From Schmidtea polychroa (taxonomy: Eukaryota), in the NCBI GenBank assembly GCA_044892525.1, contig CM097886.1:164474312-164538311 (forward strand): a stretch of 64,000 nt of DNA, in the 5' to 3' direction. The position numbers and the translations under genes are program-made. The first letter of the stretch is position 1; every line of letters begins with the position of its first letter. A model generated the notes under the pieces. The model had not been told where the DNA came from and made no database searches. It saw only the letters and a program-made list of their open reading frames with translations. Shown here piece after piece: positions 1 through 39,321 of this stretch.

Positions 1-42
1 TTAATTTAATTTATTAATATTGTTTATATTTGTTTTAATTAA

Positions 43-558
43 TTGTTATACCTGAATAAAAAATATTCAAATATAATTACATCATTAATGCTTAGCAATA
101 TAAATTATAAAGGAAAATGTTCAGTTTCTCATTTAAAGTTTCCAATGGGAAAACCACAACAAATTATCGATAGAAGTGGAAAGTACCCAATTATGTTTTT
201 CAAATCTGGTAAATGTAGAATAATGGAATGTAGGCAACCAATAAAAGTTGAAGATATACCATTTACAATAGAGGATTTTCAAATTCAATCCATTACTGTA
301 ACTGCAGACATTGGAACAAAAATTGATTTATATGATATATTAAAGAAAACTAATTCCATATATGAACCGGAAATCTTTCCAGCTTTGCGATATGTAAAGT
401 ATAATCCCTTATGCGTTAATGTGTTTGCCAGTGGTAAGATAGTCATACTAGGTATAAAAACATTGGATTATCACGATTTGGTTGAAAATATTCTTAACGA
501 AATTAGATCAATGACTGAAGAGTATGAAATCCTAAATTTCTTACTAACCATTACCTAA
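43..558 (+). CDS. Maverick-encoded compact TBP-like protein (likely start at ATG 88, 156 aa)
   Basis: Motifs LSNINY, MFFKSGKCRIM, FQIQSITVTAD, YEPEIFPALRY and NVFASGKIVILG align with the two TBP repeats (IQNIV, IFSSGKMV, IQNMVGSCD, YEPELFPGL, IFVSGKVVLTG). Confidence 0.85.
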   Translation: MLYLNKKYSNIITSLMLSNINYKGKCSVSHLKFPMGKPQQIIDRSGKYPIMFFKSGKCRIMECRQPIKVEDIPFTIEDFQIQSITVTADIGTKIDLYDILKKTNSIYEPEIFPALRYVKYNPLCVNVFASGKIVILGIKTLDYHDLVENILNEIRSMTEEYEILNFLLTIT

Positions 559-706
559 CAATATGTGTTGTATATGATTGTATATGTAAATATATGTTGT
601 AATACTAGTATATGAATTTGATTGGTTGTTGTACATGACTATGTGTTTCTTGTGTGTTTAAATATTGGTATAAATACAAGTACATTATTTATTTATTTCA
701 TTATAA

Positions 707-1046
707 ATGTTATCCCAATCAATTGATGGTAAGTTACAATTTTAATTTTAAATTTATTTTAATTTTATTTTTAGAAATAATGTATCAAGCTCTTGTTAAT
801 AAGATGATACAACTGTACACAAAAGAACTTTGTGACTTGGTGTTCTGTGCACCAGAAACAAGAAATATTCGAATTCTGGAGGCTACTGGAATCAATTTAA
901 TTTAGTATATTTCAAACTATAAGAAAAATAGAAAAAATTGGATTAAAGATGAGCCCATATGCGATTCACCATGTATGTGCTGTGGAAATTTGAGGATCGC
1001 CAGAAATAAGCTGGAATTAGCTTTCACCATAGAGAGATTGTTATAA
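707..1046 (+). pseudogene. Spliced Maverick accessory 'TGI' gene: exon 707-728, intron 729-774, exon 775-1046, one in-frame TAG at 903
   Basis: GTAAGT...TTTTAG intron of 46 nt. Spliced product is MLSQSIDEIMYQALVNKMIQL...ATGINLI*...ICDSPCMCC. Homologues at 43879-44443 and 63427-63805. Confidence 0.65.
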
Positions 1047-1150
1047 TAAATTATTTTAAATTATTGTTTTTAACTTTTTATTTTTAAAATTTAGTTATTT
1101 AGTTTAAATTTTATTTTGTTTATGTTTTATTTTGTTTATATGTTTAATTT

Positions 1151-1195
1151 ATGTAAATTTGATTGGTTGCACATGTGCCTGATTCAGTATAAATA
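1151..1195 (+). promoter_or_regulatory. Octamer-like / CCAAT (ATTGG) / TATA promoter of the SSB-like gene
   Basis: ATGTAAAT at 1151, ATTGG at 1162, TATAAATA at 1188, ATG at 1229. The 26-nt ATTGG-to-TATA spacing is repeated in Maverick-2. Confidence 0.55.
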
Positions 1196-1228
1196 AAGGT
1201 TTTTTATGATGAATGTGTGCAATTATAA

Positions 1229-1669
1229 ATGTATCTAACAAAAGGAGAAAAAATATCCAATGGTATTGAAACAGTGAAACCTACTCGAACAAAGAAAGAT
1301 TTCAAGCCTGTTCAAGTGTTCCATGACTATAAGATGTATTTCTTGGTGAATGAAATTGAGTACAAGTTATCGAAGCCTGTTACATTGACTAAAACTCAAT
1401 ATTCAAATTTACACGGAAATATATCAAAAGAGGATGTTGATTCAATCAATAAAGTTTTACAACAGATCAATTAAAAATTGAGTTGTACTGAAAACATATT
1501 CATCAATTATCGGCATACAAGATTTCATGATGCTTTTGATGAAATAGAGTTTAAAGAAACAGAGAATTGGTATATCAATATAATAATTCAAGGATATAAA
1601 TTATCCTCCAATGAAGTTATGACACCAATATGAAGGATTGATCAAGCGAGAATTTCTCTTGTATTTTAA
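1229..1669 (+). pseudogene. Maverick accessory gene, putative OB-fold ssDNA-binding protein, two in-frame stops
   Basis: Reading through TAA 1472 and TGA 1631 gives ...FHDAFDEIEFKETENWYINIIIQGY...TPI*RI, collinear with the intact ORF 43212-43625. Confidence 0.65.
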
Positions 1670-2075
1670 TGATCGAGATTTTATATAAAATAAATTTTTG
1701 TATTTTGAAAACTGTCTTTTTATTATTTAATTAAATTAATTTAAAAATTATAGCTCTGGTTAGAGAATAAATCTGTTTGCTTCAAAAGTAATTTTATAAG
1801 TAATCGAGCTTTGATTGATATAAATTATTATTATTATTTTATTATTAATATTATTTTAATATTATTATTTATGGGATTGGTGGCAAAGTGGTGAATTTAC
1901 TTTTTGATTTTTGGTTTTGAAGTTAGGTATGAGGTTCAATTCCAAGTATGGGCGACTTTTCCATCTTGCATCCTCACATAGAGTAGTCAATAGTACTTGA
2001 CTCTCACATAGACCACCTGTGACCACTAAGTATGACGACACAGTTACCATGGTCAGTATATTGAGTCATCAATAA

Positions 2076-2300
2076 GTGGTCAGTTAGTAACAGGTTTGTA
2101 TATGACGTAATTAGCACGCGAGTGGTAAATTAGTAACAATGTGTGTATTATGTAATGGACACGTGAGTGGTCAGTTAGTAACAATGTGTGTATTATGTAA
2201 AGGTCAAGGGTGAGGTCAGTTAGCAACTAAATTTATATTACGTAATAGCCACGCAAATGGTCAGTAACAACTGGGTGTGTATTACATGATCGGCCATATT
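2076..2300. repeat. About 45-bp subterminal tandem repeat (5 copies) in the Maverick TIR
   Basis: GTGGTCAGTTAGTAAC-like units start at 2076, 2122, 2167, 2212 and 2257. Confidence 0.85.
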
Positions 2301-4061
2301 AAGTAATCGTAATACCCCCTTTCGTATCTGACGGGCTCACATCCTTCTACTGTTTGTGAATATCAAGTTGTGTTCATGTCACCAAATTCTGATATGAATA
2401 GTTTCCCCGTCTTTTTTCATTTATCAATTCATGTTATTTATTATTGTAAAATTGAAAGGAAAACAATGCAAGTTCATTCATAGCATTTTCAAAACAAGAT
2501 CTTTCGCAATGATCTTTCAATTTATTCATAATCGCTTTTAAGAAGATTCATTGACATACATTGAAGGTCTTTGATCAGGTTCAATTAAATGTTACAGTTA
2601 AAATCTAAATTTTTCTTTCTGTAGAATCCTTTCAGATCAGGACTTGCAGAAGTTGAGGCAACGTAAAAAGATCATTAAAGGATGAGCAAATGATCTCGAT
2701 TCTTTAATGTTATGAAATTGAAAAACAGAAGGGAGCAATTTGGACATGTCACAATGACTGATAAAGATGGATCATTTAGAGTGGATCAAAAAAAGTATTA
2801 TGAGAAACATATTTCCCGATCAAATTCGTGTCAATTTAGCATGAGATAAGGCAATAAAAAAGAGTTGATGTTGAGATTCTGGAAATGTTAGAGAAATATT
2901 TTAATTATTAATAAAATTACACAAATAAATGATATCAATGAAATGGTAAAGCCATTTGTACAATAAAATATGAGTTCGTGTCTTTTTGGGTGATTGCAGT
3001 TGTAGGTAAAATGGGAAACAAAAGAAATCACAGCCGAATACTTTTATTTCGAATAATCTGACCAAAATTATTTGCTTTTGGAACTTTGTCAACTAGTTTT
3101 CAACTAGATATTTCACTTACCAAAGAATAAGGTTAAATAAATGTTCAATGCATTCACAACAAGATAAGATAAAAGGTTTTGGACTGTTTATTTCTTTCCC
3201 CCATATCATATGCTTAAATGAATGTTTGTATAAATGTTCTATTTAGTTGCAAAACTTACGTTGTATAAATATATGTCATGTCTGCAAGATTCTCACGTGA
3301 CCTCAGCATTATTTACTAATGTATTCGTAAACAATTCGCATTTCATACATTCAAATAATCATCAACAAAATAATGATTCCATATCACAATTTGCGCATTA
3401 TAATGGGTAAATGTTACCGATATTCCTTTCCAAATAAATATTGGAGCGTCCTAACAGCAATAATACTGCTCTCGCCACTCACCAACAGCGCTGATTACAT
3501 TTATTACGAATTGAATGGAACCATTAAAGATTCTGAATGGAATATTTCTTTACTCACCAAAATTTTCGAAGGAATAGTTTTATACGCCACCAATGCAAAT
3601 ACAAGTTTCATCATAAAATTACATTCAGATAATCGGATAGGAACAGTTACTCTAAATGAAATGGCCCCTACTAGCAGGACAATGAGTAAGTAATAATATA
3701 CTGGATATATTATTTGATCCTTCCGGTTCCAGTCAACTGTGCTATTGAACCGATCAATCATTTGACTATTTTGATCAGTTTCTATTCAAGGAGAATTAAA
3801 CTCAATTGCAGAAATGCAACGAATTCGACTTTATTAGCCTCAGATAATGAAGGTAGTTGTTTTTTATAAATAAATATAAATAATTAATATAAATAAATCT
3901 GACCCCTCTCTCCGGTTGGATTTGTGGTTTGCTGATGAAACAGCTAATGGAAGCAAGAGAAAGATATGAAAAGTTAAAAATACAAAATACTTATTACATA
4001 TAGACATAAATATTATAAGAACTTTTTTTCCAATTTCACCACTGATTATTTCTTCCATTGA

Positions 4062-4263
4062 ATTTATTTAAAAGAGAGCTTGAAGAATATAAATCAGTAA
4101 TATATCGATGTTTTTTGATACTCATGACTTTTCGGTACTGCCTTTTTCAAGTGAATTTTAAAATTTTAAAATTCACTTGAAACGGCAGTGCCAAAAAGTC
4201 ATGAGTATCAAAAACATCGATATACTGCTGATTTATATTCTTCAAGCTCTCTTTTAAATAAAT
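4062..4263. repeat. About 200-bp loopless hairpin (foldback) centred on AAAA|TTTT at 4163/4164
   Basis: ATTTATTTAAAAGAGAGCTTGAAGAATATAAATCAG... is the reverse complement of ...CTGATTTATATTCTTCAAGCTCTCTTTTAAATAAAT, with a few mismatches. Confidence 0.9.
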
Positions 4264-4403
4264 ACATATAAATATGTATTTAAAGCGATAATATTTCAAA
4301 GAAATTATAACAATTATAATTTTTTGATTATCTAAGTAAAGGTTCTCAATCACTTAAAATGTTGTATTATGCAGGTTTGTTCTACTTTGTTTATTGGTAC
4401 AAT

Positions 4404-4625
4404 TGTTAAATATGTATATCCATGTATATATGTAGTGTGATTGTGAGTGCATATTATAATAGAGATCGTTAGAGCCCAGCAGTGTCTCCTTTAAAACTTG
4501 TTCGTTGACTGGTGGGATGGTTGTATGTTGTATGTAGTGTTGTAGTAATAAATAAGTATATAATATATTACAACGAACTTAATATAAGAAATTAATTAAA
4601 CTTTACAAAATTTATTTATACAACA
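4404..4625. mobile_element. Probable solo LTR (222 bp)
   Basis: TGTT...AACA termini, near-perfect 5-bp flanking duplication ACAAT/ATAAT and an internal AATAAA. Confidence 0.45.
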
Positions 4626-4761
4626 ATAATATCAAACTTGAGTTTTAGGAGATTAAAGTCGAAATGGGAGCTCCTTTTAACTCGACTTGTAATAGTTATT
4701 CGTAGTGAAAAATCTGGATTATCAGAAAATCGAATCAAATGGAATCAAAATCGAATCAAAC

Positions 4762-7700
4762 CAGTGGCGGATTTAGATTTTGGTGCGTGGGGGCGAGGAA
4801 AATTTTCAGGAGGCGCCATAAATTATGAAGATGGTACTACTTATTTTCGCGAGTATTGAGTAAATACTAATATTATTAAAAAGCATTATATTCAGTAAAT
4901 TTATTCTAGTAAATTTATTGATGTAACAAACAAGTTTATTTATTATTTAAATTGCTTCCTGTGTGATTTCATTGAAGCAATACGATTTATATTTGATTCA
5001 AAGTCAATGTTCTCAGCCAGTTCGCGTTCTATTGAAATTAATGCTAATCCAGACGGACGTTCGTTTGTCATTGTTGATCGCAAATAAATTTTGATGATTT
5101 TCAGTCTACTGAAACTTCTTTCAGCAGTAGCAGATGTAACAGGAAGAGTCAAGTATATTTTATAAAGAATTGCCAAATTGGGAAGTCCTGGCGCCATCTG
5201 TTTTTCAACCAAGAAAGGCAGCACCTCTTTAAGTTGTAGTTCACAAGATAGTAATTGGCGTATTGATGCATACACGTATTTGAAAGTATCATATTCTAGG
5301 ATTGCTTCTTCAATATTAATATCGTTTTTGTAAATGTCGCATAAATTTTGAAAAGATTCTTTATTTTCTTCTGATATTTGTGATGGATCAAGACAGGAGA
5401 ATAAAGCAACAGTGTTATGAAAATCATTAAAACGTTCATCTAGTTGTGTTACAAGTGTATCCAAGACAGTGAAATACGTTTCACATTTGAAGCGTGTAGT
5501 TGGATCATCAACCCTTTCATCTCTGTTAAGTTCACCTGCCATGTGTTTCCTTTTTGCAACTCGCTTTTCTTTAAATTCTGTTTCAACATCTAGTAAGGAA
5601 CAATTTTTGATAATAAATGATTTTACAGCAACATTTAGACTTTCAAAAGCTTTATCACTTCTCATATCAGCAAACTTATTTCTGGCAACATAAATCAATT
5701 GTTTTGCAAACGCAATATCAATGCCCTTTCGTTGCAAATAGTTTGATAGCACAAAGATATTATCTAGCAACTTTTGTAGAAATAGCATCAAAAAAACAAA
5801 AGAATATTTTGTTATCAAAATAGATAGTCCCATAGCTTCTGCTCTGACACTTCCTTTGTGTTCTTTTGATTCCCCAAAATTTATATCTTCTAGAGTAGAT
5901 ATAATAGCGGAGAATGATCCAACAACTGCATCAACTGCATGCTTTCGGCTTGCCCATCTTGTATCAGAAAGTCGTTTTAGAGTATCTACTATCGATTCAT
6001 ATCGAGACTTCTGATGTTCTACGGAGAATATGTAGCCGTGGTAGACTTGATGTAAGGAAAGTATACAACTTTTCTGTTGTACCAAAAAACAACTGAACAT
6101 CACTGTTAAGAGACATTGCTTCAATAGTCACCAAATTCAATGCATGAGAACAACAGTGAACAAAGATGGCATTTGGTGAAAGTGTCTTTATCTTAGTTTG
6201 AAGACCATTTTTAATCCCAGACATCACAGAGGCACCATCATATGCCTGTCCTCTACAAAGTGTCAATGTTTCGCTTTTGTAACTCCGTTAATAATATATT
6301 AGAAAATGCTGCAGCATTACTGTTTTCTAAAGTGTAGAAGCCTATAAATCGTTCAACAACTTGTCCTGATTTTAACACTAATCTTAAAGAAACTGACATC
6401 TGATCAACTCTGGATATATCAATTGTTGAATCAACAATTAGAGAAAAGAATTGTGCAGACCTAACTTCATTATCAATATTTGCGGATAATTCTGAGCCAA
6501 GTGATTGAATTAGGTCATTTTGTACATCATGACATAAATAAAGTTCATTTTTCTTTTCAAACATAAGATGATTGTCCAAAGTGGAATCATATTTAGCCAA
6601 TAAAAATAGCAATTCACGAAAATTTCCAGTATTACTACACTTGTCAGAGCCAGAATGTTTTCTGTGTCCTCTAAATGGCAAACCTTGTTTTGCTAAAAAC
6701 AACGTTGCATTTACCATTCGTTTCAAAACTTCTCTATTTTTTCCACCTGATAACGCTCCTGACTAATCAAACCAGATATCACAGTTTTATCATTTGAAAT
6801 GCGATATTTAGCCAGAAAATATTGACATATTACACTTTGATGTTGATTGGAAGTTTCATGTTTAACGATTTTTTCCATGCCTTTTTTCCAGTTATAAACT
6901 CCAAAATTTGGGTCGGACCATTCCTTGCTATAATTTTCAGTTTTACAATCAGCGAATAACCAGCAAGCTTGGCAATGCATTTTTTGATTTGTTGGTGAAT
7001 AGACAAGCCAATTTCTTTCCTTCTTCATACTACCTTTTCCAAAACATTTTGTGTACCAAGAAATTTGAAACTTGCGCCCCAATTCATCTGTCGGAAATTG
7101 AAATGGTTCATTGAGTCCAGGTTGACATGGTCCGATTTCAAACAATTTTCGTATCAGTTTCGAGCTTATGCTCGTATTAATGTAGAGTCCTGGATCTGTA
7201 GGAAAGTCGGATTGAGGAAAAAGTGATTCTTGTAAAATATCTGAAGCAAGTTGTTCTTCCACTGTATCAAATTCTGAATCACCCTGATTATGTTTCAAGC
7301 CCTGAGCAGGTAATGTTACTGTCTCAGTATTCTCTGCACATGAATGTATAGCTGGGTGTTGTTCATCAACTAGAGATAGTACTTGCTCATCTTCAACAAG
7401 AACTTCAGATGATGTTTCTGTCTCAGCAGGCTCAGCACAGAAACTCGAATGATTAGATGAGTGTTGATCATCAAATACATGCTCATTTTTACCAGAAACT
7501 TCAGTTGATTGAACTACTGGCAGTTTAGACTGTTTAGTTATAAATGATGTTAACTTAATATATTTGCTAGCATCTGCCTTGAGGCTGGCTTCCTTTGCCA
7601 ATTTACGCCTAGATGATCCACTTAATTTGGTAACTGCTTTGCTTTTATTAGTGTCACCAGCTGACTCAGCCATGGCTCTAATTTAAATTTTATTTTAATT

Positions 7701-8292
7701 CAATATTGAATATTATTTTACTATTTCAATAGTAACGCAATAATTTATTTGTCAAAAAAGTCAAAATTGACAATAATTATTATGGTTAGATTTATGTACA
7801 AACACTATACAAGCTTAAAAACTTCAAACAGCCGCTCTTCACTGGAGCTATGTAATATTATTAATATGATGCAGCATAACAGTTGGAGTTGCTTAAATCC
7901 AGTTCAACTTTGTACACAGACAAAACTGTAATAAGAGAAAGGCCAGGCCGTCTGGTTAGTGGCAGTCTCAGCACTGCTGAGTAAGCAGTAATCTGCACAA
8001 CTGAAGAATATGCCTGTTGCTGTGCTGCATCAACTATGTTTAACAACATAGCAGAGTAATAGGTACAATCAATAATAATAATAATCTATAAACGGTGACT
8101 CTGAGCAGCTGTATGCTGCAGTGATAGTAGAATACATTTCAATCCATTTAGCTCTTCCAAATCAAAGATATATTAAATTGTCAGTGTCAGTGATCGGATT
8201 AATCTTAATGCTTGTACACATTCATAAAAATTATCTTTAGGATTCAACAGGCGACTCACCCCCCCCCACGCCTATAGCTAAATCCGCTACTG
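4762..8292 (-). mobile_element. hAT transposon (ZMYM1/TTF-type zinc finger, DUF4371-like class)
   Basis: TIRs CAGTGGCGGATTTAG and CTAAATCCGCTACTG. Flanks AATCAAAC/ATGGAAAC match only 5 of 8. Confidence 0.9.
4943..7673 (-). pseudogene. Frameshifted hAT transposase
   Basis: Four overlapping ORFs carry CQACWLF (zinc finger), LIVDSTIDIS, GQAYDGASVM, HCCSHALNL, SDTRW and PVTSATAERSFSRLK. Confidence 0.92.
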
Positions 8293-10473
8293 ATGGAAAC
8301 TCCTTTTGATTTGGATAATGATAAATATTTGATAATGGATAATGCAGTTTATTGGGCAATATGGTTGGAAAAGTATTCATTTTTTCTTTTATTTTAAGTG
8401 AAACTGTCTAATTTATTGAGGGAAAGAATTAAATATCGAATTCCTTTTGGTTTTTAATTATAATGGATGTACGATAAAGAACGATTTAGACTATTAAAAG
8501 ATGAAATTGAAATTTAATTTCTTTTGCTTTTAATTGTAATAGAAGATATTTTCTTCCATAAGTTTTTTGTTATCTTTCCTTATTGAATTTTTTATCTATT
8601 TATTTATTTTTCAATTCTTCTTTAGTGATAATTCACTATGGTAAATTATCGCTATATAGTTTTTTATATAGAAATTTTAAATCGCGTAAATCGTAAAAAA
8701 TGACAACTTATAACGGATCCTAATTACAAATAAAAAGAAAAATTAAAAAGATACAACAACACATTACATTGACGTTGATGGAACCAAAATTGATATTTAT
8801 CTTTGAACAGGATTAGCAACACCAAATATAAAAATATAATATGTATTTCAAACAGGTACATGTGAACTGACTGGACCGCTAGCACGTTTCCATATTATAA
8901 TTAATTTAAACAAATTTTCATATTAAAGATCATTTCAAGAATCTCCCGGTACCGAAAGATTATTACAAAGCAACGAACACGACATTCATCTGGATGGGAA
9001 ATATTGGTCCGTACGTCGGTTACAATAATGAAACATTTAATCCATTAAAATCACAATTGATTGGTTGTGTTGAATATTTCTATTTCAATAACCAACCAAT
9101 CGCATTGAAAAATCAAAACAATCAAATTTTCCCATCCTGTACCAGCCAGACTGTGACAGAACAAGTCAACAATCGGACAATGAAGTCATCCAGATCAATA
9201 AATGTGCAAATATATGATTGTTCCTTGTCGGGAATTAATGCCAACCGTTGCGATCCAATCGGTGAGGAATTTCTAAATTCAAATTAATTATTAAATTAAT
9301 TAATCAACGAATACTTTCAGAACTGCCCGTCTATAAAGATTCCAACCAATCATATCACAGATATGAGAATAATAATTATAATAAAACAATAAAAATATCC
9401 TTAGTTTGGAAGCAACTTTATTCTAAAGAATTTTGTTTGATGGAGATCAAATTGAGGTGAGATTGTGTTGGGATAAATGGATTATCATGGGCATATTCTA
9501 GAAATGGGACAATAATATTTGTTGTCAATAATATTAATGTTGTTGGCATGTACATGTACAATACTGATGCCGATACTAATCCGTCTCTCATATTATTGGA
9601 TAAAATTTCATTGGATAAAATAAATAAATTATCCATGGCATTCGGAATCTCAGAATTTATGGTCAAGGTGATTTGATGAGTATCCGGGAATTTCATTTGT
9701 TTTAATATTGTAATGGCAGATATTTAACGGGATCCAGATTCATAAATTTATTACTGATTCAATTGGCGCACCAATCAAAATCAATGTTGGAAAATCCCGT
9801 AAAAAACAAATTTGCAGAACATTTGAAGGAATTCTGAGTTTGATTATTTGCATTCTGTAATTGGTTGATGGATGTTGAAACAGGTTTCCAATACGATTCA
9901 TCAGATTTCACGAGATCCGGAAACGGAAATATGAAAGCTAAGGGTCACGGCAATAATTCAGTAGTTGTTAGTTTCATCAAACCTAACAATGTAATTCTCA
10001 TAATTGCGTATAATCTAATTAATTGAATATAAAAAGCCACGAAGTGTTTAGCTGTGTAAAAATTTCGTGCGTGACCTCGTGATTTTAGACCTGAAATGAA
10101 ATCCTAAAAATGGATATTCGTATAAATTTGTTAATGCCTGTTTATGCTGCCAAATTACTTAAATTATTACCAAAGAGTTTCTGATTCTTTTTCAGAGATA
10201 AATGGCGTAGAAATATGTTGGCGGAGATCTGTGGAATTATGTAGAAATTGTCCGCCCATGCAAATGAAGGAAATGAAATTAAATAATGTTGACCAACTGT
10301 GAAAGTATGACTAAGCCTGTTACAGAATTTATAAAAATGTAGATGTTATGAGGGTTATTTAAATGAATAAAGAATATTCAAGCCTTCTAGACTTTGAATG
10401 TTTTCAGGAATATACCAAAACTGAAAAAATTACAAAGGAAGTTAAGATTTATCCAAGATATATACCACTATAC

Positions 10474-12350
10474 CAACGGTGGGCAAATGCGGCTCTTCGT
10501 TGAGTAAACTGCGGCTCATTGATAATTGAATTTTTGATAATTGAATTTGAAAATTGAATTCGATTTTTTTATTTTGAAATTTTTTCAACTGAATTTTTAA
10601 AAAAAAATTTTTTGTTGCAATTGTATTTTCATAAATGTTAAAAATTAACGAAACATTGTTTTTCACATTTTACTGCTTTTTAAAATTATTTTGTAGTAGG
10701 CGGCGCTTTGTTATAACAACGAGAGAGAAGCAATGAAAATAAATTTAGTGAAATTTAGTGAATTTTGATTAGTTAGTATTTTTGTTTGTACAATATTGCG
10801 GTCGTTTGTATATTTTAGTATAGTTTTCTATTCGTGTTTTTTGAAAAATTTGGTAAGAAGATTTTTATGAAGCATTTTAAAATTTTAAATTAATTAAAAT
10901 TAAATTTATGTCTTTTTATTATTTTGTTTAAATTTCAGTAATATAAGTTATTCAAATTTATTATTACAATGACCTCAGAAAACATCAAAAAACGAAAATA
11001 CAAACAAGAAAATAGAACTTTTCAAGAAGAATGGACAGAAAAGTTTTTTTTTATTGACAATAATGGTAAATCGTTGTGTCTTATTTGTAAAGTTACAATT
11101 TCCAACTACAAAGTAACCAATTTACGTCAACACTATGAAGTAAGTCATCCACACTTATCAATTCAATATCCACTCAATTCAAAATTGCGAAGAGAAAAAC
11201 TTAAGTCATTGCAATCAGGGCTTCAAAACCAACAAGGACTAATGTCTTCTTTTAGTCGAGAAGATGACAGTGCCAACGAAGCTAGTTTTTTGATAGCTTG
11301 GAATATAGCTCGTGCTAAACATACATATGGAGAAGGTGAATTTATTAAGAGAAACTTGGAAGAAGTGATTAAAGTTTTGGATCCGGATAACTCAAAACTA
11401 CATAAATTGATCTCACGTATTCCTATGTCACGTCGTACAACTGCGCGTCGAATTGGCCAAATTAGCGAAAATGTTGAAAATAATTTGATGTGTGATTTAA
11501 AAAATTGTACAGCATTCAGTTTAGCTCTCGACGAGTCTACTGACATTCAGGATGTTCCACAATTAGCCGTTTTTGTCAGCTTTGTATCTTCTGACGTAAA
11601 AGTAAAGGAAGAAATTTTAGACCTAGTAGCTCTTAAAGAAACAACTCGCGGTATCGATGTCAAAACTGTGCTTGATGTAGTGATGGACAAGTTTGAATTG
11701 GCGCGTGATAAACTTGTAAGTGTTGCGACAGACTGCAATGATGGGGAAAAATCAAGGTCTCATTGGTCTTTTAAACAGAGATCCAAATATTCCTCATTTC
11801 TTATCTCTTCAATGCATAATTCATCGCGAGCATCTCATAGCGAAGTACTTTAAATACGAAAATGTGTGGAAGATTGTTTTGAAGATTGTGAATTTAATTA
11901 GAACAAATGCCAAAACACATCGTCAATTTAAAAAAATATCCACACTTAAAACAAGTTGCTTGCCGTCTAATTTCAATTTTTGGTACAACATATTGTTGTG
12001 AATCTTTGTACTCCACAATGAAGTTCGTGAAGTCGAAATATCGTTCACAGTTGACCAATCAGCATCTTACAGAATTGCTGCGAACAGCTTTAACAAAGTA
12101 TACACCAAATTTCAAAGATTTGACCAAAAGTCTTCGTTAATTCAAGAAATTTTATTACTTTTTATTAATGGATTTTTATTATATTTTATGTTTGTTACTT
12201 AAATTTTGAAATAATTGTTTTTAATAGCGTTTAAGTCTTTTTTAATCAAATTAATGAAATAAAAAAAAATATGTAGTTCACTATGGTGGCTCTTTAAAAA
12301 ATAAATTTTCGGAAAATGTCTCTCATTGAACTCATGCGTGCCCACCCTTG
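10474..12350 (+). mobile_element. Buster/Charlie-type hAT (GTF2IRD2-like), internally deleted
   Basis: TIRs CAACGGTGGGCA and TGCCCACCCTTG with a perfect 8-bp TSD CACTATAC (central TA). Confidence 0.93.
10969..12140 (+). pseudogene. GTF2IRD2/Charlie-like transposase relic
   Basis: FQEEWTEKFFF, CLIC BED finger, FSLALDESTD, HCIIHREHL-like and TTYCCESLYS motifs. Frameshifts are present and the middle is deleted. Confidence 0.88.
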
Positions 12351-13166
12351 CACTATACCATCCAGATATTGTGTTCAATGACCTCATAAGTTGTCCTAAA
12401 TCTGAATCAAATGAAGAGATAAAAGAAAATGAGAAACAATTTTTGGGTAATATTGTAGAACTTGCAAAAGTGACAATGAACTTTATATGGAAAAATAAAA
12501 CCTACATGTGAAACAATTTGTTATTCTGACTTTATCATTTCCATTCGAGTCCAATTTCCTATAAGCCTCACCACGTAGACAAAAGTAAATTGTAATGAAT
12601 TTATTTCCTCTATGTTATCAATTAGCTATATTTTATCTCTATTAACCTCCTGATTTAGCACAATTTCAATGATTATTTATGATAAACGAAATTTATATAT
12701 TATTTCTTCCAGAATAAAGATATTTGGATTCTGATCGGAGGTTTCTCAATTGTCATAGCAGCATTATTCACCATTTATTGGGTCTTTAGAAAGCAAATGA
12801 AAAGAAGATTCAAAGAGTAAATATTCAATTATATTAAAACAAATTTTATTAATTTCCTCATCAAGAATAAATAGAGATCGGAGTGAACCAATGCATTACG
12901 AGGTCGTTGATAATATCTACACGATCTCCCCTCCTATTAGAGAAAGCTGTGACTATGGAATGATTGAATCGGAATATGCATCTATAAAATGAAATCAAAA
13001 TCAAATATCTTTTGTTTATTTTCAAAATAGTTTCAATGTAATAAAGAATAATTCATTTGCAAAGTTCATAGTTCATTCGATTCGGGAAAATGAATGAAAG
13101 GATATGAATATGAACTTGATTAATCAAAACATAAATATACTTAAAATAAATTAATTTCAACAAAAC

Positions 13167-13277
13167 TGTTTTAATAATAAGACGATTGATCTAACTTGAT
13201 CATTTTGACCTCTATCTATAATGAATGATCTATATAATAGGGAATGACGTCGTTTCTAGGCCACATTTTGGTACCCC
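13167..13277 (+). mobile_element. Possible short LTR (13167-13265) followed by a PBS-like TTTTGGTACCCC
   Basis: TGT...ACA ends. No partner LTR or pol is visible before the N-gap. Confidence 0.25.
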
Positions 13278-27692: not shown

Positions 27693-29873
27693 GTATAGTG
27701 GTATATATCTTGGATAAATCTTAACTTCCTTTGTAATTTTTTCAGTTTTGGTATATTCCTGAAAACATTCAAAGTCTAGAAGGCTTGAATATTCTTTATT
27801 CATTTAAATAACCCTCATAACATCTACATTTTTATAAATTCTGTAACAGGCTTAGTCATACTTTCACAGTTGGTCAACATTATTTAATTTCATTTCCTTC
27901 ATTTGCATGGGCGGACAATTTCTACATAATTCCACAGATCTCCGCCAACATATTTCTACGCCATTTATCTCTGAAAAAGAATCAGAAACTCTTTGGTAAT
28001 AATTTAAGTAATTTGGCAGCATAAACAGGCATTAACAAATTTATACGAATATCCATTTTTAGGATTTCATTTCAGGTCTAAAATCACGAGGTCACGCACG
28101 AAATTTTTACACAGCTAAACACTTCGTGGCTTTTTATATTCAATTAATTAGATTATACGCAATTATGAGAATTACATTGTTAGGTTTGATGAAACTAACA
28201 ACTACTGAATTATTGCCGTGACCCTTAGCTTTCATATTTCCGTTTCCGGATCTCGTGAAATCTGATGAATCGTATTGGAAACCTGTTTCAACATCCATCA
28301 ACCAATTACAGAATGCAAATAATCAAACTCAGAATTCCTTCAAATGTTCTGCAAATTTGTTTTTTACGGGATTTTCCAACATTGATTTTGATTGGTGCGC
28401 CAATTGAATCAGTAATAAATTTATGAATCTGGATCCCGTTAAATATCTGCCATTACAATATTAAAACAAATGAAATTCCCGGATACTCATCAAATCACCT
28501 TGACCATAAATTCTGAGATTCCGAATGCCATGGATAATTTATTTATTTTATCCAATGAAATTTTATCCAATAATATGAGAGACGGATTAGTATCGGCATC
28601 AGTATTGTACATGTACATGCCAACAACATTAATATTATTGACAACAAATATTATTGTCCCATTTCTAGAATATGCCCATGATAATCCATTTATCCCAACA
28701 CAATCTCACCTCAATTTGATCTCCATCAAACAAAATTCTTTAGAATAAAGTTGCTTCCAAACTAAGGATATTTTTATTGTTTTATTATAATTATTATTCT
28801 CATATCTGTGATATGATTGGTTGGAATCTTTATAGACGGGCAGTTCTGAAAGTATTCGTTGATTAATTAATTTAATAATTAATTTGAATTTAGAAATTCC
28901 TCACCGATTGGATCGCAACGGTTGGCATTAATTCCCGACAAGGAACAATCATATATTTGCACATTTATTGATCTGGATGACTTCATTGTCCGATTGTTGA
29001 CTTGTTCTGTCACAGTCTGGCTGGTACAGGATGGGAAAATTTGATTGTTTTGATTTTTCAATGCGATTGGTTGGTTATTGAAATAGAAATATTCAACACA
29101 ACCAATCAATTGTGATTTTAATGGATTAAATGTTTCATTATTGTAACCGACGTACGGACCAATATTTCCCATCCAGATGAATGTCGTGTTCGTTGCTTTG
29201 TAATAATCTTTCGGTACCGGGAGATTCTTGAAATGATCTTTAATATGAAAATTTGTTTAAATTAATTATAATATGGAAACGTGCTAGCGGTCCAGTCAGT
29301 TCACATGTACCTGTTTGAAATACATATTATATTTTTATATTTGGTGTTGCTAATCCTGTTCAAAGATAAATATCAATTTTGGTTCCATCAACGTCAATGT
29401 AATGTGTTGTTGTATCTTTTTAATTTTTCTTTTTATTTGTAATTAGGATCCGTTATAAGTTGTCATTTTTTACGATTTACGCGATTTAAAATTTCTATAT
29501 AAAAAACTATATAGCGATAATTTACCATAGTGAATTATCACTAAAGAAGAATTGAAAAATAAATAAATAGATAAAAAATTCAATAAGGAAAGATAACAAA
29601 AAACTTATGGAAGAAAATATCTTCTATTACAATTAAAAGCAAAAGAAATTAAATTTCAATTTCATCTTTTAATAGTCTAAATCGTTCTTTATCGTACATC
29701 CATTATAATTAAAAACCAAAAGGAATTCGATATTTAATTCTTTCCCTCAATAAATTAGACAGTTTCACTTAAAATAAAAGAAAAAATGAATACTTTTCCA
29801 ACCATATTGCCCAATAAACTGCATTATCCATTATCAAATATTTATCATTATCCAAATCAAAAGGAGTTTCCAT

Positions 29874-32800
29874 CAGTAGCGGATTTAGCTATAGGCGTGG
29901 GGGGGTGAGTCGCCTGTTGAATCCTAAAGATAATTTTTATGAATGTGTACAAGCATTAAGATTAATCCGATCACTGACACTGACAATTTAATATATCTTT
30001 GATTTGGAAGAGCTAAATGGATTGAAATGTATTCTACTATCACTGCAGCATACAGCTGCTCAGAGTCACCGTTTATAGATTATTATTATTATTGATTGTA
30101 CCTATTACTCTGCTATGTTGTTAAACATAGTTGATGCAGCACAGCAACAGGCATATTCTTCAGTTGTGCAGATTACTGCTTACTCAGCAGTGCTGAGACT
30201 GCCACTAACCAGACGGCCTGGCCTTTCTCTTATTACAGTTTTGTCTGTGTACAAAGTTGAACTGGATTTAAGCAACTCCAACTGTTATGCTGCATCATAT
30301 TAATAATATTACATAGCTCCAGTGAAGAGCGGCTGTTTGAAGTTTTTAAGCTTGTATAGTGTTTGTACATAAATCTAACCATAATAATTATTGTCAATTT
30401 TGACTTTTTTGACAAATAAATTATTGCGTTACTATTGAAATAGTAAAATAATATTCAATATTGAATTAAAATAAAATTTAAATTAGAGCCATGGCTGAGT
30501 CAGCTGGTGACACTAATAAAAGCAAAGCAGTTACCAAATTAAGTGGATCATCTAGGCGTAAATTGGCAAAGGAAGCCAGCCTCAAGGCAGATGCTAGCAA
30601 ATATATTAAGTTAACATCATTTATAACTAAACAGTCTAAACTGCCAGTAGTTCAATCAACTGAAGTTTCTGGTAAAAATGAGCATGTATTTGATGATCAA
30701 CACTCATCTAATCATTCGAGTTTCTGTGCTGAGCCTGCTGAGACAGAAACATCATCTGAAGTTCTTGTTGAAGATGAGCAAGTACTATCTCTAGTTGATG
30801 AACAACACCCAGCTATACATTCATGTGCAGAGAATACTGAGACAGTAACATTACCTGCTCAGGGCTTGAAACATAATCAGGGTGATTCAGAATTTGATAC
30901 AGTGGAAGAACAACTTGCTTCAGATATTTTACAAGAATCACTTTTTCCTCAATCCGACTTTCCTACAGATCCAGGACTCTACATTAATACGAGCATAAGC
31001 TCGAAACTGATACGAAAATTGTTTGAAATCGGACCATGTCAACCTGGACTCAATGAACCATTTCAATTTCCGACAGATGAATTGGGGCGCAAGTTTCAAA
31101 TTTCTTGGTACACAAAATGTTTTGGAAAAGGTAGTATGAAGAAGGAAAGAAATTGGCTTGTCTATTCACCAACAAATCAAAAAATGCATTGCCAAGCTTG
31201 CTGGTTATTCGCTGATTGTAAAACTGAAAATTATAGCAAGGAATGGTCCGACCCAAATTTTGGAGTTTATAACTGGAAAAAAGGCATGGAAAAAATCGTT
31301 AAACATGAAACTTCCAATCAACATCAAAGTGTAATATGTCAATATTTTCTGGCTAAATATCGCATTTCAAATGATAAAACTGTGATATCTGGTTTGATTA
31401 GTCAGGAGCGTTATCAGGTGGAAAAAATAGAGAAGTTTTGAAACGAATGGTAAATGCAACGTTGTTTTTAGCAAAACAAGGTTTGCCATTTAGAGGACAC
31501 AGAAAACATTCTGGCTCTGACAAGTGTAGTAATACTGGAAATTTTCGTGAATTGCTATTTTTATTGGCTAAATATGATTCCACTTTGGACAATCATCTTA
31601 TGTTTGAAAAGAAAAATGAACTTTATTTATGTCATGATGTACAAAATGACCTAATTCAATCACTTGGCTCAGAATTATCCGCAAATATTGATAATGAAGT
31701 TAGGTCTGCACAATTCTTTTCTCTAATTGTTGATTCAACAATTGATATATCCAGAGTTGATCAGATGTCAGTTTCTTTAAGATTAGTGTTAAAATCAGGA
31801 CAAGTTGTTGAACGATTTATAGGCTTCTACACTTTAGAAAACAGTAATGCTGCAGCATTTTCTAATATATTATTAACGGAGTTACAAAAGCGAAACATTG
31901 ACACTTTGTAGAGGACAGGCATATGATGGTGCCTCTGTGATGTCTGGGATTAAAAATGGTCTTCAAACTAAGATAAAGACACTTTCACCAAATGCCATCT
32001 TTGTTCACTGTTGTTCTCATGCATTGAATTTGGTGACTATTGAAGCAATGTCTCTTAACAGTGATGTTCAGTTGTTTTTTGGTACAACAGAAAAGTTGTA
32101 TACTTTCCTTACATCAAGTCTACCACGGCTACATATTCTCCGTAGAACATCAGAAGTCTCGATATGAATCGATAGTAGATACTCTAAAACGACTTTCTGA
32201 TACAAGATGGGCAAGCCGAAAGCATGCAGTTGATGCAGTTGTTGGATCATTCTCCGCTATTATATCTACTCTAGAAGATATAAATTTTGGGGAATCAAAA
32301 GAACACAAAGGAAGTGTCAGAGCAGAAGCTATGGGACTATCTATTTTGATAACAAAATATTCTTTTGTTTTTTTGATGCTATTTCTACAAAAGTTGCTAG
32401 ATAATATCTTTGTGCTATCAAACTATTTGCAACGAAAGGGCATTGATATTGCGTTTGCAAAACAATTGATTTATGTTGCCAGAAATAAGTTTGCTGATAT
32501 GAGAAGTGATAAAGCTTTTGAAAGTCTAAATGTTGCTGTAAAATCATTTATTATCAAAAATTGTTCCTTACTAGATGTTGAAACAGAATTTAAAGAAAAG
32601 CGAGTTGCAAAAAGGAAACACATGGCAGGTGAACTTAACAGAGATGAAAGGGTTGATGATCCAACTACACGCTTCAAATGTGAAACGTATTTCACTGTCT
32701 TGGATACACTTGTAACACAACTAGATGAACGTTTTAATGATTTTCATAACACTGTTGCTTTATTCTCCTGTCTTGATCCATCACAAATATCAGAAGAAAA

Positions 32801-33402
32801 TAAAGAATCTTTTCAAAATTTATGCGACATTTACAAAAACGATATTAATATTGAAGAAGCAATCCTAGAATATGATACTTTCAAATACGTGTATGCATCA
32901 ATACGCCAATTACTATCTTGTGAACTACAACTTAAAGAGGTGCTGCCTTTCTTGGTTGAAAAACAGATGGCGCCAGGACTTCCCAATTTGGCAATTCTTT
33001 ATAAAATATACTTGACTCTTCCTGTTACATCTGCTACTGCTGAAAGAAGTTTCAGTAGACTGAAAATCATCAAAATTTATTTGCGATCAACAATGACAAA
33101 CGAACGTCCGTCTGGATTAGCATTAATTTCAATAGAACGCGAACTGGCTGAGAACATTGACTTTGAATCAAATATAAATCGTATTGCTTCAATGAAATCA
33201 CACAGGAAGCAATTTAAATAATAAATAAACTTGTTTGTTACATCAATAAATTTACTAGAATAAATTTACTGAATATAATGCTTTTTAATAATATTAGTAT
33301 TTACTCAATACTCGCGAAAATAAGTAGTACCATCTTCATAATTTATGGCGCCTCCTGAAAATTTTCCTCGCCCCCACGCACCAAAATCTAAATCCGCCAC
33401 TG
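29874..33402 (+). mobile_element. Mirror copy of the ZMYM1-class hAT; transposase relic 30491-33221
   Basis: TIRs CAGTAGCGGATTTAG ... CTAAATCCGCCACTG. Confidence 0.9.
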
Positions 33403-33538
33403 GTTTGATTCGATTTTGATTCCATTTGATTCGATTTTCTGATAATCCAGATTTTTCACTACGAATAACTATTACAAGTCGAGTTAAAAGGAGCTCCCAT
33501 TTCGACTTTAATCTCCTAAAACTCAAGTTTGATATTAT

Positions 33539-33760
33539 TGTTGTATAAATAAATTTTGTAAAGTTTAATTAATTTCTTATATTAAGTTCGTTGTAATATA
33601 TTATATACTTATTTATTACTACAACACTACATACAACATACAACCATCCCACCAGTCAACGAACAAGTTTTAAAGGAGACACTGCTGGGCTCTAACGATC
33701 TCTATTATAATATGCACTCACAATCACACTACATATATACATGGATATACATATTTAACA
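33539..33760. mobile_element. Mirror copy of the probable solo LTR
   Basis: Reverse complement of 4404-4625. Confidence 0.45.
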
Positions 33761-33900
33761 ATTGTACCAATAAACAAAGTAGAACAAACCTGCATAATAC
33801 AACATTTTAAGTGATTGAGAACCTTTACTTAGATAATCAAAAAATTATAATTGTTATAATTTCTTTGAAATATTATCGCTTTAAATACATATTTATATGT

Positions 33901-34102
33901 ATTTATTTAAAAGAGAGCTTGAAGAATATAAATCAGCAGTATATCGATGTTTTTGATACTCATGACTTTTTGGCACTGCCGTTTCAAGTGAATTTTAAAA
34001 TTTTAAAATTCACTTGAAAAAGGCAGTACCGAAAAGTCATGAGTATCAAAAAACATCGATATATTACTGATTTATATTCTTCAAGCTCTCTTTTAAATAA
34101 AT
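33901..34102. repeat. Mirror copy of the 200-bp hairpin
   Basis: Reverse complement of 4062-4263. Confidence 0.9.
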
Positions 34103-36494
34103 TCAATGGAAGAAATAATCAGTGGTGAAATTGGAAAAAAAGTTCTTATAATATTTATGTCTATATGTAATAAGTATTTTGTATTTTTAACTTTTCATAT
34201 CTTTCTCTTGCTTCCATTAGCTGTTTCATCAGCAAACCACAAATCCAACCGGAGAGAGGGGTCAGATTTATTTATATTAATTATTTATATTTATTTATAA
34301 AAAACAACTACCTTCATTATCTGAGGCTAATAAAGTCGAATTCGTTGCATTTCTGCAATTGAGTTTAATTCTCCTTGAATAGAAACTGATCAAAATAGTC
34401 AAATGATTGATCGGTTCAATAGCACAGTTGACTGGAACCGGAAGGATCAAATAATATATCCAGTATATTATTACTTACTCATTGTCCTGCTAGTAGGGGC
34501 CATTTCATTTAGAGTAACTGTTCCTATCCGATTATCTGAATGTAATTTTATGATGAAACTTGTATTTGCATTGGTGGCGTATAAAACTATTCCTTCGAAA
34601 ATTTTGGTGAGTAAAGAAATATTCCATTCAGAATCTTTAATGGTTCCATTCAATTCGTAATAAATGTAATCAGCGCTGTTGGTGAGTGGCGAGAGCAGTA
34701 TTATTGCTGTTAGGACGCTCCAATATTTATTTGGAAAGGAATATCGGTAACATTTACCCATTATAATGCGCAAATTGTGATATGGAATCATTATTTTGTT
34801 GATGATTATTTGAATGTATGAAATGCGAATTGTTTACGAATACATTAGTAAATAATGCTGAGGTCACGTGAGAATCTTGCAGACATGACATATATTTATA
34901 CAACGTAAGTTTTGCAACTAAATAGAACATTTATACAAACATTCATTTAAGCATATGATATGGGGGAAAGAAATAAACAGTCCAAAACCTTTTATCTTAT
35001 CTTGTTGTGAATGCATTGAACATTTATTTAACCTTATTCTTTGGTAAGTGAAATATCTAGTTGAAAACTAGTTGACAAAGTTCCAAAAGCAAATAATTTT
35101 GGTCAGATTATTCGAAATAAAAGTATTCGGCTGTGATTTCTTTTGTTTCCCATTTTACCTACAACTGCAATCACCCAAAAAGACACGAACTCATATTTTA
35201 TTGTACAAATGGCTTTACCATTTCATTGATATCATTTATTTGTGTAATTTTATTAATAATTAAAATATTTCTCTAACATTTCCAGAATCTCAACATCAAC
35301 TCTTTTTTATTGCCTTATCTCATGCTAAATTGACACGAATTTGATCGGGAAATATGTTTCTCATAATACTTTTTTTGATCCACTCTAAATGATCCATCTT
35401 TATCAGTCATTGTGACATGTCCAAATTGCTCCCTTCTGTTTTTCAATTTCATAACATTAAAGAATCGAGATCATTTGCTCATCCTTTAATGATCTTTTTA
35501 CGTTGCCTCAACTTCTGCAAGTCCTGATCTGAAAGGATTCTACAGAAAGAAAAATTTAGATTTTAACTGTAACATTTAATTGAACCTGATCAAAGACCTT
35601 CAATGTATGTCAATGAATCTTCTTAAAAGCGATTATGAATAAATTGAAAGATCATTGCGAAAGATCTTGTTTTGAAAATGCTATGAATGAACTTGCATTG
35701 TTTTCCTTTCAATTTTACAATAATAAATAACATGAATTGATAAATGAAAAAAGACGGGGAAACTATTCATATCAGAATTTGGTGACATGAACACAACTTG
35801 ATATTCACAAACAGTAGAAGGATGTGAGCCCGTCAGATACGAAAGGGGGTATTACGATTACTTAATATGGCCGATCATGTAATACACACCCAGTTGTTAC
35901 TGACCATTTGCGTGGCTATTACGTAATATAAATTTAGTTGCTAACTGACCTCACCCTTGACCTTTACATAATACACACATTGTTACTAACTGACCACTCA
36001 CGTGTCCATTACATAATACACACATTGTTACTAATTTACCACTCGCGTGCTAATTACGTCATATACAAACCTGTTACTAACTGACCACTTATTGATGACT
36101 CAATATACTGACCATGGTAACTGTGTCGTCATACTTAGTGGTCACAGGTGGTCTATGTGAGAGTCAAGTACTATTGACTACTCTATGTGAGGATGCAAGA
36201 TGGAAAAGTCGCCCATACTTGGAATTGAACCTCATACCTAACTTCAAAACCAAAAATCAAAAAGTAAATTCACCACTTTGCCACCAATCCCATAAATAAT
36301 AATATTAAAATAATATTAATAATAAAATAATAATAATAATTTATATCAATCAAAGCTCGATTACTTATAAAATTACTTTTGAAGCAAACAGATTTATTCT
36401 CTAACCAGAGCTATAATTTTTAAATTAATTTAATTAAATAATAAAAAGACAGTTTTCAAAATACAAAAATTTATTTTATATAAAATCTCGATCA

Positions 36495-36935
36495 TTAAAA
36501 TACAAGAGAAATTCTCGCTTGATCAATCCTTCATATTGGTGTCATAACTTCATTGGAGGATAATTTATATCCTTGAATTATTATATTGATATACCAATTC
36601 TCTGTTTCTTTAAACTCTATTTCATCAAAAGCATCATGAAATCTTGTATGCCGATAATTGATGAATATGTTTTCAGTACAACTCAATTTTTAATTGATCT
36701 GTTGTAAAACTTTATTGATTGAATCAACATCCTCTTTTGATATATTTCCGTGTAAATTTGAATATTGAGTTTTAGTCAATGTAACAGGCTTCGATAACTT
36801 GTACTCAATTTCATTCACCAAGAAATACATCTTATAGTCATGGAACACTTGAACAGGCTTGAAATCTTTCTTTGTTCGAGTAGGTTTCACTGTTTCAATA
36901 CCATTGGATATTTTTTCTCCTTTTGTTAGATACAT
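36495..36935 (-). pseudogene. Putative SSB-like accessory gene (Maverick-1)
   Basis: Mirror of 1229-1669. Confidence 0.65.
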
Positions 36936-37117
36936 TTATAATTGCACACATTCATCATAAAAAACCTTTATTTATACTGAATCAGGCACATGTGCAACCA
37001 ATCAAATTTACATAAATTAAACATATAAACAAAATAAAACATAAACAAAATAAAATTTAAACTAAATAACTAAATTTTAAAAATAAAAAGTTAAAAACAA
37101 TAATTTAAAATAATTTA

Positions 37118-37457
37118 TTATAACAATCTCTCTATGGTGAAAGCTAATTCCAGCTTATTTCTGGCGATCCTCAAATTTCCACAGCACATACATGGTGAAT
37201 CGCATATGGGCTCATCTTTAATCCAATTTTTTCTATTTTTCTTATAGTTTGAAATATACTAAATTAAATTGATTCCAGTAGCCTCCAGAATTCGAATATT
37301 TCTTGTTTCTGGTGCACAGAACACCAAGTCACAAAGTTCTTTTGTGTACAGTTGTATCATCTTATTAACAAGAGCTTGATACATTATTTCTAAAAATAAA
37401 ATTAAAATAAATTTAAAATTAAAAATGTAACTTACCATCAATTGATTGGGATAACAT
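37118..37457 (-). pseudogene. Spliced 'TGI' accessory gene (Maverick-1)
   Basis: Mirror of 707-1046. Confidence 0.65.
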
Positions 37458-37605
37458 TTATAATGAAATAAATAAATAATGTACTTGTATTTATACCAAT
37501 ATTTAAACACACAAGAAACACATAGTCATGTACAACAACCAATCAAATTCATATACTAGTATTACAACATATATTTACATATACAATCATATACAACACA
37601 TATTG

Positions 37606-38121
37606 TTAGGTAATGGTTAGTAAGAAATTTAGGATTTCATACTCTTCAGTCATTGATCTAATTTCGTTAAGAATATTTTCAACCAAATCGTGATAATCCA
37701 ATGTTTTTATACCTAGTATGACTATCTTACCACTGGCAAACACATTAACGCATAAGGGATTATACTTTACATATCGCAAAGCTGGAAAGATTTCCGGTTC
37801 ATATATGGAATTAGTTTTCTTTAATATATCATATAAATCAATTTTTGTTCCAATGTCTGCAGTTACAGTAATGGATTGAATTTGAAAATCCTCTATTGTA
37901 AATGGTATATCTTCAACTTTTATTGGTTGCCTACATTCCATTATTCTACATCTACCAGATTTGAAAAACATAATTGGGTACTTTCCACTTCTATCGATAA
38001 TTTGTTGTGGTTTTCCCATTGGAAACTTTAAATGAGAAACTGAACATTTTCCTTTATAATTTATATTGCTAAGCATTAATGATGTAATTATATTTGAATA
38101 TTTTTTATTCAGGTATAACAA
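37606..38121 (-). CDS. TBP-like protein (Maverick-1)
   Basis: Mirror of 43-558 with one K to R change (SGKC vs SGRC). Confidence 0.85.
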   Translation of the reverse strand: MLYLNKKYSNIITSLMLSNINYKGKCSVSHLKFPMGKPQQIIDRSGKYPIMFFKSGRCRIMECRQPIKVEDIPFTIEDFQIQSITVTADIGTKIDLYDILKKTNSIYEPEIFPALRYVKYNPLCVNVFASGKIVILGIKTLDYHDLVENILNEIRSMTEEYEILNFLLTIT

Positions 38122-38168
38122 TTAATTAAAACAAATATAAACAATATTAATAAATTAAATTAATTAAA

Positions 38169-39318: not shown

Positions 39319-39321
39319 ACA

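Follow-up and report, generated by a model that had tools for sequence, protein, structure and literature searches.

The window analysed here, a stretch of 64,000 nucleotides of Schmidtea polychroa DNA, is assembled with a near-perfect palindrome of about 38 kb, and our results point to its being probably an assembly artefact in which the assembler reused one path around a foldback element. The symmetry axis of the palindrome falls within this element (15566-22591), which had been overlooked in an earlier note on the same DNA. If the palindrome is an artefact, it is a warning that palindromic transposons make inverted duplications and extra gene copies appear falsely in gapped drafts of genomes of this kind; if it is real, a Maverick-ended foldback element drives gene duplication, a known type of rearrangement by a little described type of element. 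Either way, the 7-kb central element is the part most deserving attention.

1..18028, plus strand: left palindrome arm, containing the N gap 14105-14346 and reaching the window edge
20038..38163, minus strand: right palindrome arm, containing the N gap 23811-24061

Self-BLAST of the assembled sequence bears out the near-perfect palindrome of about 38 kb that the earlier note had described. Positions 1-14104 mirror 38163-24062 with 99.972% identity over 14,104 bp, and 14347-18037 mirror 23810-20122 with 99.837% (99.84%) over 3,691 bp, the arms being 99.96% identical overall, and a chance origin of such identity is impossible. The palindrome is confirmed for the assembled sequence, not for the chromosome, and the two near-identical inverted arms and spacer that a real inverted duplication would have are found in the assembly only. 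To the right of 38163 the sequence goes on and its mirror partner is absent from the window. The first 40 bases of the window have 5% GC (the lowest 0.8% of 40-base windows), a weak and post hoc sign of a contig end at the outer limit of the left arm.

Each arm carries an N gap, as reported before, of 242 N on the left and 251 N on the right, and the 60-bp flanks on either side are identical between the arms. The sequence record contains gaps (n=7) of 136-251 N each; gaps of this size are typical of short-read scaffolding, which cannot separate 18-kb arms. The shared gap was considered as proof of an artefact and rejected, since real duplicates assembled from pooled reads would share a gap as well. 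Two observations count against an artefact: the arms are not literal copies, being unequal in gap length and in a mid-arm homopolymer at 8259, and the stretch 14347-23810 is a single contig without a gap, which is unexpected if the arms are common to many near-identical copies.

15566..22591, no strand assigned: gene-less foldback element, 7,026 bp, 22.5% GC, with AGTAG...CTACT ends
18834-18925 versus 20129-20038, inverted: innermost arm pair, 92 bp with one transition, overlooked before
18926..20037, no strand assigned: unpaired loop, 1,112 bp, 22% GC, no ORF of at least 65 aa

The boundary of the foldback element was set by its end motif and a change in composition, and is based on one copy. 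Its arms, of 3.4 and 2.6 kb, are made of 13-90-bp tandem units and are near-identical across 2.5 kb; with the 805-bp indel listed below and the 92-bp innermost arm taken into account, the loop measures 1,112 bp and not about 2 kb. The longest stop-free frame in the element is just 62 codons, and it is therefore not an autonomous Maverick/Polinton; pPolB, integrase and the Maverick core genes are absent from 15566-22591, and no Rfam family was found in 12300-23810. Of the Maverick end motifs (AGT)2 and (AG)3, the former agrees in 5/6 bases with the end AGTAGG, which has its first five bases (AGTAG) in common with the resident Maverick end at 2351, AGTAG occurring 75 times in the window on both strands. 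The flanks of the element, AGATTTTC / GAAAATCT, are reverse complements of each other, and no 5-8-bp direct target-site duplication was found at it, the flanks being inverted instead. Since the flanks mirror each other without such a duplication, one native flank appears to be absent, and the lack of a target-site duplication is expected if one flank is non-native.

In the explanation that we favour, the real locus would consist of flank A, the 7-kb foldback element and, beyond it, an unrelated-to-A flank B, which the assembly lacks. Because the element arms are near-identical over 2.5 kb, they would collapse in a short-read assembly graph, and if the loop occurs both ways round (flipped by arm recombination in a heterozygous or mosaic state), or if the arms are common to other copies, the assembler would come in from A, traverse the loop and exit into the reverse complement of A. 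One 15-kb path, N gap included, would then be written twice, variants would stay separate only where a read or fragment extends to the loop or to the outer fork, and the few outer arm differences would be allelic. The host gene, the hATs and the Maverick end described below would then be single-copy on the chromosome. The caution of the earlier note about contig reuse by the assembler is judged right, and we hold path reuse, as judged from the assembled sequence, to be reasonably likely; the axis position, the mirror flanks and the clustering of arm differences are also predicted by a real, element-seeded duplication assembled from pooled reads.

Such a recent duplication, giving A-element-A', is possible but in our estimate unlikely. 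It could have arisen by a crossover of the left arm of one sister chromatid with the right arm of the other, or by a break in the right arm followed by fold-back priming, and old arm differences would be retained centre-ward of the exchange point. It accounts for the position of the axis, for the loss of a target-site duplication and for the cluster of differences near the centre, and is in keeping with the central contig without a gap, and both mechanisms are documented in the cited portions of PMC3403216 and PMC7999016. Isodicentric sister-chromatid crossover (PMC3403216) and fold-back priming with breakage-fusion-bridge (PMC7999016) are there likewise associated with near-identical outer arms and with an axis at which a spacer and inverted repeat existed beforehand. 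However, the product would be dicentric or acentric, with a second event needed for stabilisation, and the inverted-repeat duplications covered in those portions are unstable or disease-associated, whereas the present locus is described from assembled sequence; a loop flip would by contrast be harmless and so likelier to persist. Neither an outer junction of the palindrome nor a telomere-like array is visible within the window, which also speaks against a real duplication. It is doubtful that a gene-less Maverick-satellite foldback seeded a stable inverted duplication, exceeding 18 kb, in an animal germline, doubling an intact membrane-receptor gene and setting Maverick and hAT sequence in a mirror possibly yielding long dsRNA. 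The analysis gave no evidence for the dsRNA silencing suggested in the earlier note.

The differences between the arms are the following:

212: A/G substitution
739: A/T substitution
8259-60: C9/C7 homopolymer, mid-arm
17511: substitution
17756: homopolymer indel, overlooked before
17877: substitution
17956: substitution
18915: transition inside the 92-bp innermost arm, overlooked before
18029-18833: 805-bp indel, in the left inner arm only, with a near-repeat (9/11 bases) at its bounds, overlooked before

Those listed in the earlier note (212, 739, 8259-60, 17511, 17877 and 17956) are all present within a few bases. With the junction-linked ones excluded, 4/7 differences are confined to the 512 bases next to the centre, out of 17,780 (binomial P 2.2e-5, post hoc), and adding the two linked to the indel junction gives 6/9 within 521 bp of the centre (P 1.1e-5). 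No substitution occurs in the 16,529 called bases from 740 to 17510, and in 15566-17510 none was observed against 9.7-12.9 expected at the inner rate. Both outer substitutions occur no further in than base 740 (P 0.002 under a uniform distribution), and this grouping at the window edge, not scattered along the arm, argues against a real duplication. The pattern fits a short-read assembler that phases variants only near the loop and reuses one path: the arms are identical except near graph forks, with the mid-arm homopolymer difference as the exception, a pattern of which artefacts are not the only possible cause. In a toy variant-chaining model, chaining stopped no more than 520 bp from the centre in 41-85% of runs at a phasing reach of 250-300 bp, and at the same distance in 8-30% of runs at a reach of 500 bp. 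Natural homogenisation of the outer arms of a foldback may yield an inner difference gradient without any assembler effect. The arm substitutions appear to be biological variants because 5/6 are transitions, a proportion in favour of a real duplication.

The earlier note had taken the substitutions and the asymmetric centre as arguments for a breakage-fusion-bridge origin. Neither discriminates: the concentration of substitutions towards the centre and the outer edge fits path reuse and element-seeded duplication alike, and the asymmetric part belongs to the inside of a foldback element that was already there. An identical structure would also result from an in-vitro snap-back chimera, in which a displaced strand folded on the element arms and copied flank A during whole-genome amplification or library preparation. 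Palindromic chimeras of multiple displacement amplification are documented in the cited parts of PMC6218980 and PMC13265396, but an 18-kb chimeric arm must be abundant enough to reach a short-read assembly and the arm differences require a separate source; we regard this origin as very unlikely.

Path reuse has a close counterpart in the false palindromes of Adineta vaga AV13 (PMC8494291, PMC7953838, as excerpted), which are likewise large inverted duplicates on one scaffold of a gapped animal draft. None of the palindromes of the short-read draft was recovered in the chromosome-level assembly according to the part of PMC8494291 used here, and the corresponding part of PMC7953838 carries the same caveat on draft palindromes. 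The AV13 palindromes are attributed there to mis-scaffolded phased haplotypes, whereas in the present case arm identity is 99.96% and a foldback element forms the axis, and the artefact status is judged from the assembly itself. The cited part of 10.1101/2022.01.20.477068 deals with assemblers that split palindromes, path reuse of the present kind not being its subject.

The window also contains the following features:

1..2351, no strand assigned: Maverick/Polinton end, terminus AGTAG at 2351 on the minus strand; mirror 35813-38163
43-558, plus strand: TBP-like ORF of the Maverick end, Pfam TBP 1.5e-16
1229-1670: broken ORF of the Maverick end
2075-2245: subterminal repeats of the Maverick end, 45-bp units
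3403..12992, plus strand: host gene with an open reading frame of ~481-497 aa over 9 GT-AG exons; mirror 25174-34761, minus strand
4059..4266, no strand assigned: MITE-like hairpin, 210-bp, self-inverted (92%), in host intron 2
4762..8292, minus strand: hAT transposon with DUF4371 and hAT dimerisation domain, frameshifted, 15-bp TIRs, in host intron 2; mirror 29874-33402
10474..12300, plus strand: truncated hAT with Spin-doc zinc finger and DUF4371, in host intron 7, ends approximate
38164..43637, plus strand: degraded Maverick continuation beyond the mirror, with broken ATPase, integrase and putative capsid genes
39359-40282 (rve to 40279), plus strand: Maverick integrase, Pfam rve 9e-10

The outer arm is ordinary chromosome: besides a Maverick end it holds a membrane-protein gene that is intact, has 9 exons and carries two hATs in its introns. 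The earlier naming of these contents was correct, but its view that the palindrome had captured them is unsupported, since the Maverick end faces inwards and the DNA of the arm is that of a normal chromosome. The same observations bear on the idea that the entire palindrome of more than 38 kb is mobile as one giant unit of foldback or composite type, or that it derives from a Maverick by copy-back and carries the host gene. Each arm does carry a Maverick end and the ends of the central element are Maverick-like, but the terminus at 2351 points inward and leaves the host gene outside the element, a copy-back genome should have outermost termini, no outer ends are visible, and the make-up of the arm, an intact gene with hATs in its introns, is that of a normal mosaic; we regard this origin as extremely improbable.

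Just one end of the resident Mavericks was identified within the window. The two genes at this end are also neighbours in loci L026, L027 and L032. The degraded Maverick is 73% identical in DNA to a neighbouring second Maverick of the window, whose ATPase matches Pox_A32 and which also has a Peptidase_C5; integrase, A32-type ATPase and adenain protease, genes expected of Mavericks, are found in 35813-43637 and this neighbour jointly. The ORFs of 38164..43637 labelled as capsid are presumed to be so, and the presumed pPolB and capsid ORFs of the resident Mavericks had no Pfam match. None of 18 tested metagenome loci with a Maverick ATPase (at least 3 kb) was a long palindrome, none of 9 scanned had a recognisable terminus, and viral scans with the ATPase gave 0 relatives first and later 3 distant ones.

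The predicted host protein has a signal-peptide-like start, a LamG-like ectodomain, one hydrophobic span and a tyrosine-bearing tail. The LamG-like assignment is a lead only, with Atlas at 0.93, PF02210 on 40% of cluster members and Pfam at 0.034 in one of five relatives. A full HMMER scan gave 8 relatives of the host gene, and a word-based homolog search with a host exon gave none. An apparent 2-bp frameshift of the host gene relative to its paralog was rejected, the site being intronic, and the ORF at 15033-15302 had no Pfam or Atlas match.

Non-autonomous Polintons were reportedly described by Kapitonov and Jurka in 2006, and the Drosophila elements FB and Galileo are Foldback (FB)-type transposons. 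The central element resembles Maverick/Polinton (PMC8097293, PMC10748475) in its AGTAG ends and long inverted arms, but it differs in having no genes, a motif of 5/6 of (AGT)2 and no visible target-site duplication; vertebrate Maverick TIRs are 46-1,447 bp long (PMC8097293, PMC10748475) versus arms of 2.6-3.4 kb here. Like FB-type transposons, whose composite units are mentioned in PMC6431247, it has long arms composed of tandem subrepeats that enclose a non-coding loop, an architecture prone to rearrangement, but it lacks a transposase and its ends look Maverick-like, and the likeness noted is one of architecture. No paper on gene-less Maverick-ended foldback elements as a class was found among the papers listed in literature searches. 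The end pattern of the element had 0 metagenome matches and 5 viral matches, none of which resembled the window by BLAST, and its DNA had no match among 31 metagenome loci carrying a Maverick ATPase. None of the 20 runs listed in the word search of 18038-23810 is an RNA run containing its words. Six runs of one organism (2 studies) contain 0.44-0.69 of the words, and much of this sequence, whatever its arrangement, exists in that organism.

Self-BLAST of the window showed that the near-perfect palindrome of at least 38 kb claimed in the earlier note is present in the assembly, with 1-14104 aligned to 38163-24062 (99.972% identity) and 14347-18037 aligned to 23810-20122 (99.837%), and that, as also claimed, an N gap with the same flanks lies in both arms (242 and 251 bases). 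BLAST gave nine arm-to-arm differences (212, 739, 8259-60, 17511, 17756, 17877, 17956, 18023 and 18032), the last two being part of the junction of an indel that gives the left arm 805 additional bases (18029-18833). Inward of this indel, 92 further bases are paired (18834-18925 with 20129-20038, one transition). The features discussed here are:

1-2351: degraded Maverick end with a TBP-like ORF (Pfam 1.5e-16), 45-bp repeats and a terminus starting AGTAG
3403-12992: host gene of nine exons with GT-AG introns, open frame of about 481-497 aa when spliced
15566-22591: central element, 7,026 bp, GC 22.5%, starting AGTAG and ending CTACT
18926-20037: unpaired loop

The palindrome centre holds a separate element that the earlier note missed. 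This central element is made up of 13-90-bp tandem units and its longest frame is 62 codons. The ends of vertebrate Mavericks read (AGT)2 or (AG)3, with 6-bp target duplications (PMC8097293; also PMC10748475, PMC3014272); the central element agrees with these ends at 5 of 6 bases, has AGTAG in common with the terminus of the resident Maverick and carries no genes. It works like a foldback element whose ends are Maverick-like, without implied membership of the Maverick family. End-pattern searches of viral and metagenome sequence, and the metagenome loci with a Maverick ATPase, gave no second copy, and its boundary was therefore set by end motif and composition. The papers listed in literature searches included none on gene-less Maverick-ended foldback elements, and the available text of PMC6431247 mentions foldback elements for Drosophila only. 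Whatever the status of the palindrome, this element is the part worth keeping. Directly outside it, 14900-15500 is a broken ORF-like stretch with no match in Pfam or Atlas.

The flanks of the central element are reverse complements of each other, not a direct repeat; therefore, if it inserted normally, the mirror of one flank (A) replaced the other native flank (B). Judged by sequence anatomy, the 38-kb palindrome probably does not exist in the chromosome. We consider it rather likely that the assembler entered the central element from flank A and exited into the reverse complement of A, which would be possible because the arms collapse in the assembly graph and the loop may exist in two orientations or in further copies. 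With 7 gaps of 136-251 N, the record has a gapped, short-read style, which rules out independent reading of the two arms. In Adineta vaga, palindromes of the draft disappeared in a long-read assembly (PMC8494291; caveat repeated in PMC7953838). Against an artefact, the central contig is gap-free, the arms differ in gap length and in one mid-arm homopolymer, and flank B was not seen. The assembler artefact described in 10.1101/2022.01.20.477068 differs from the path reuse proposed here. Six of the 20 sequencing runs listed, from two studies of organism A, contain 0.44-0.69 of the words of 18038-23810, which supports the existence of this sequence and does not address its arrangement.

Excluding the two junction-linked differences (18023, 18032), four of seven fall in the innermost 512 bases of 17,780 (P 2.2e-5, post hoc). 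Both outer substitutions lie within the first 740 bases (P 0.002), 16,529 called bases of arm are free of substitutions, and none lies in the outer 1.9 kb of the central element's arms, against 10-13 expected at the inner rate. Five of the six substitutions are transitions, and therefore two real sequences adjoin the loop. In a toy model, phasing limited by reads to 250-300 bp stopped at most 520 bp from the centre in 41-85% of runs; with 500-bp phasing this was less frequent (8-30%). In GC content the first 40 bases of the window rank among the lowest 0.8%, which weakly suggests a contig end where the left arm stops; no telomere-like array was found in the window. The main rival, a real duplication at the central element via sister-chromatid exchange or fold-back priming, as at other inverted repeats (PMC3403216, PMC7999016), predicts the same axis, lost flank and inner cluster of differences, but the resulting chromosomes would be unstable and we hold it to be possible though doubtful; if real, the palindrome is a rearrangement of a known kind. 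An amplification chimera (PMC6218980, PMC13265396) seems improbable. All these odds are judgements based on sequence anatomy. The earlier interpretation is partly supported: contig reuse is favoured, and a real fold-back duplication stays as part of the main rival.

The proposed capture of a gene and transposons is not supported, as the outer arm consists of ordinary animal chromosomal DNA without captured cargo; that the whole is a giant mobile unit appears more improbable still than a chimera. The Maverick terminus is oriented toward the palindrome centre, and on the right side the degraded Maverick continues beyond 38163 with ATPase and integrase genes, and with presumed capsid genes. The host gene was modelled in 12 variants, with differences confined to the last two splice choices, and two hAT elements lie in its introns 2 and 7. 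Eight relatives were found, the longer of which, by eye, resemble it in the layout of signal, ectodomain or membrane span and tail; a LamG-like fold in the product is a lead only.

A host-gene fragment (54933-56133, 96% identical) keeps exons 3-7 with introns, the remainder of the gene being absent, and shows expansion of a 24-bp unit to about three copies. A second degraded Maverick (44474-53400), about 73% identical to the first, has ATPase, integrase, adenain protease and presumed pPolB; its segment 46845-47709, inverted relative to its neighbours beside an N gap, is either truly inverted or was placed in the wrong orientation, and within this Maverick a small acidic, apparently spliced ORF was seen by eye (49760-50320). 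Three diverged TBP-like ORFs (43-558, 44474-44938, 62995-63402) are present, two of them head-to-head with a Maverick ATPase, and relatives occur in at least 7 of the 9 metagenome loci examined. One metagenome contig of 5.9 kb (L020, 1-5939), which carries a Maverick ATPase relative, has 72-bp inverted repeats at both ends. The window also holds, as seen by eye, a short hAT-like element that is non-autonomous and has TIRs and an intact 8-bp direct flank repeat (53588-53825). In addition there are a further hAT transposase, broken by stops and matching the intron-7 hAT in type (56640-59190), and a degraded Gypsy-like element with zinc knuckles and integrase, flanked by two LTR-like repeats that are 85-90% identical (59232-62925).
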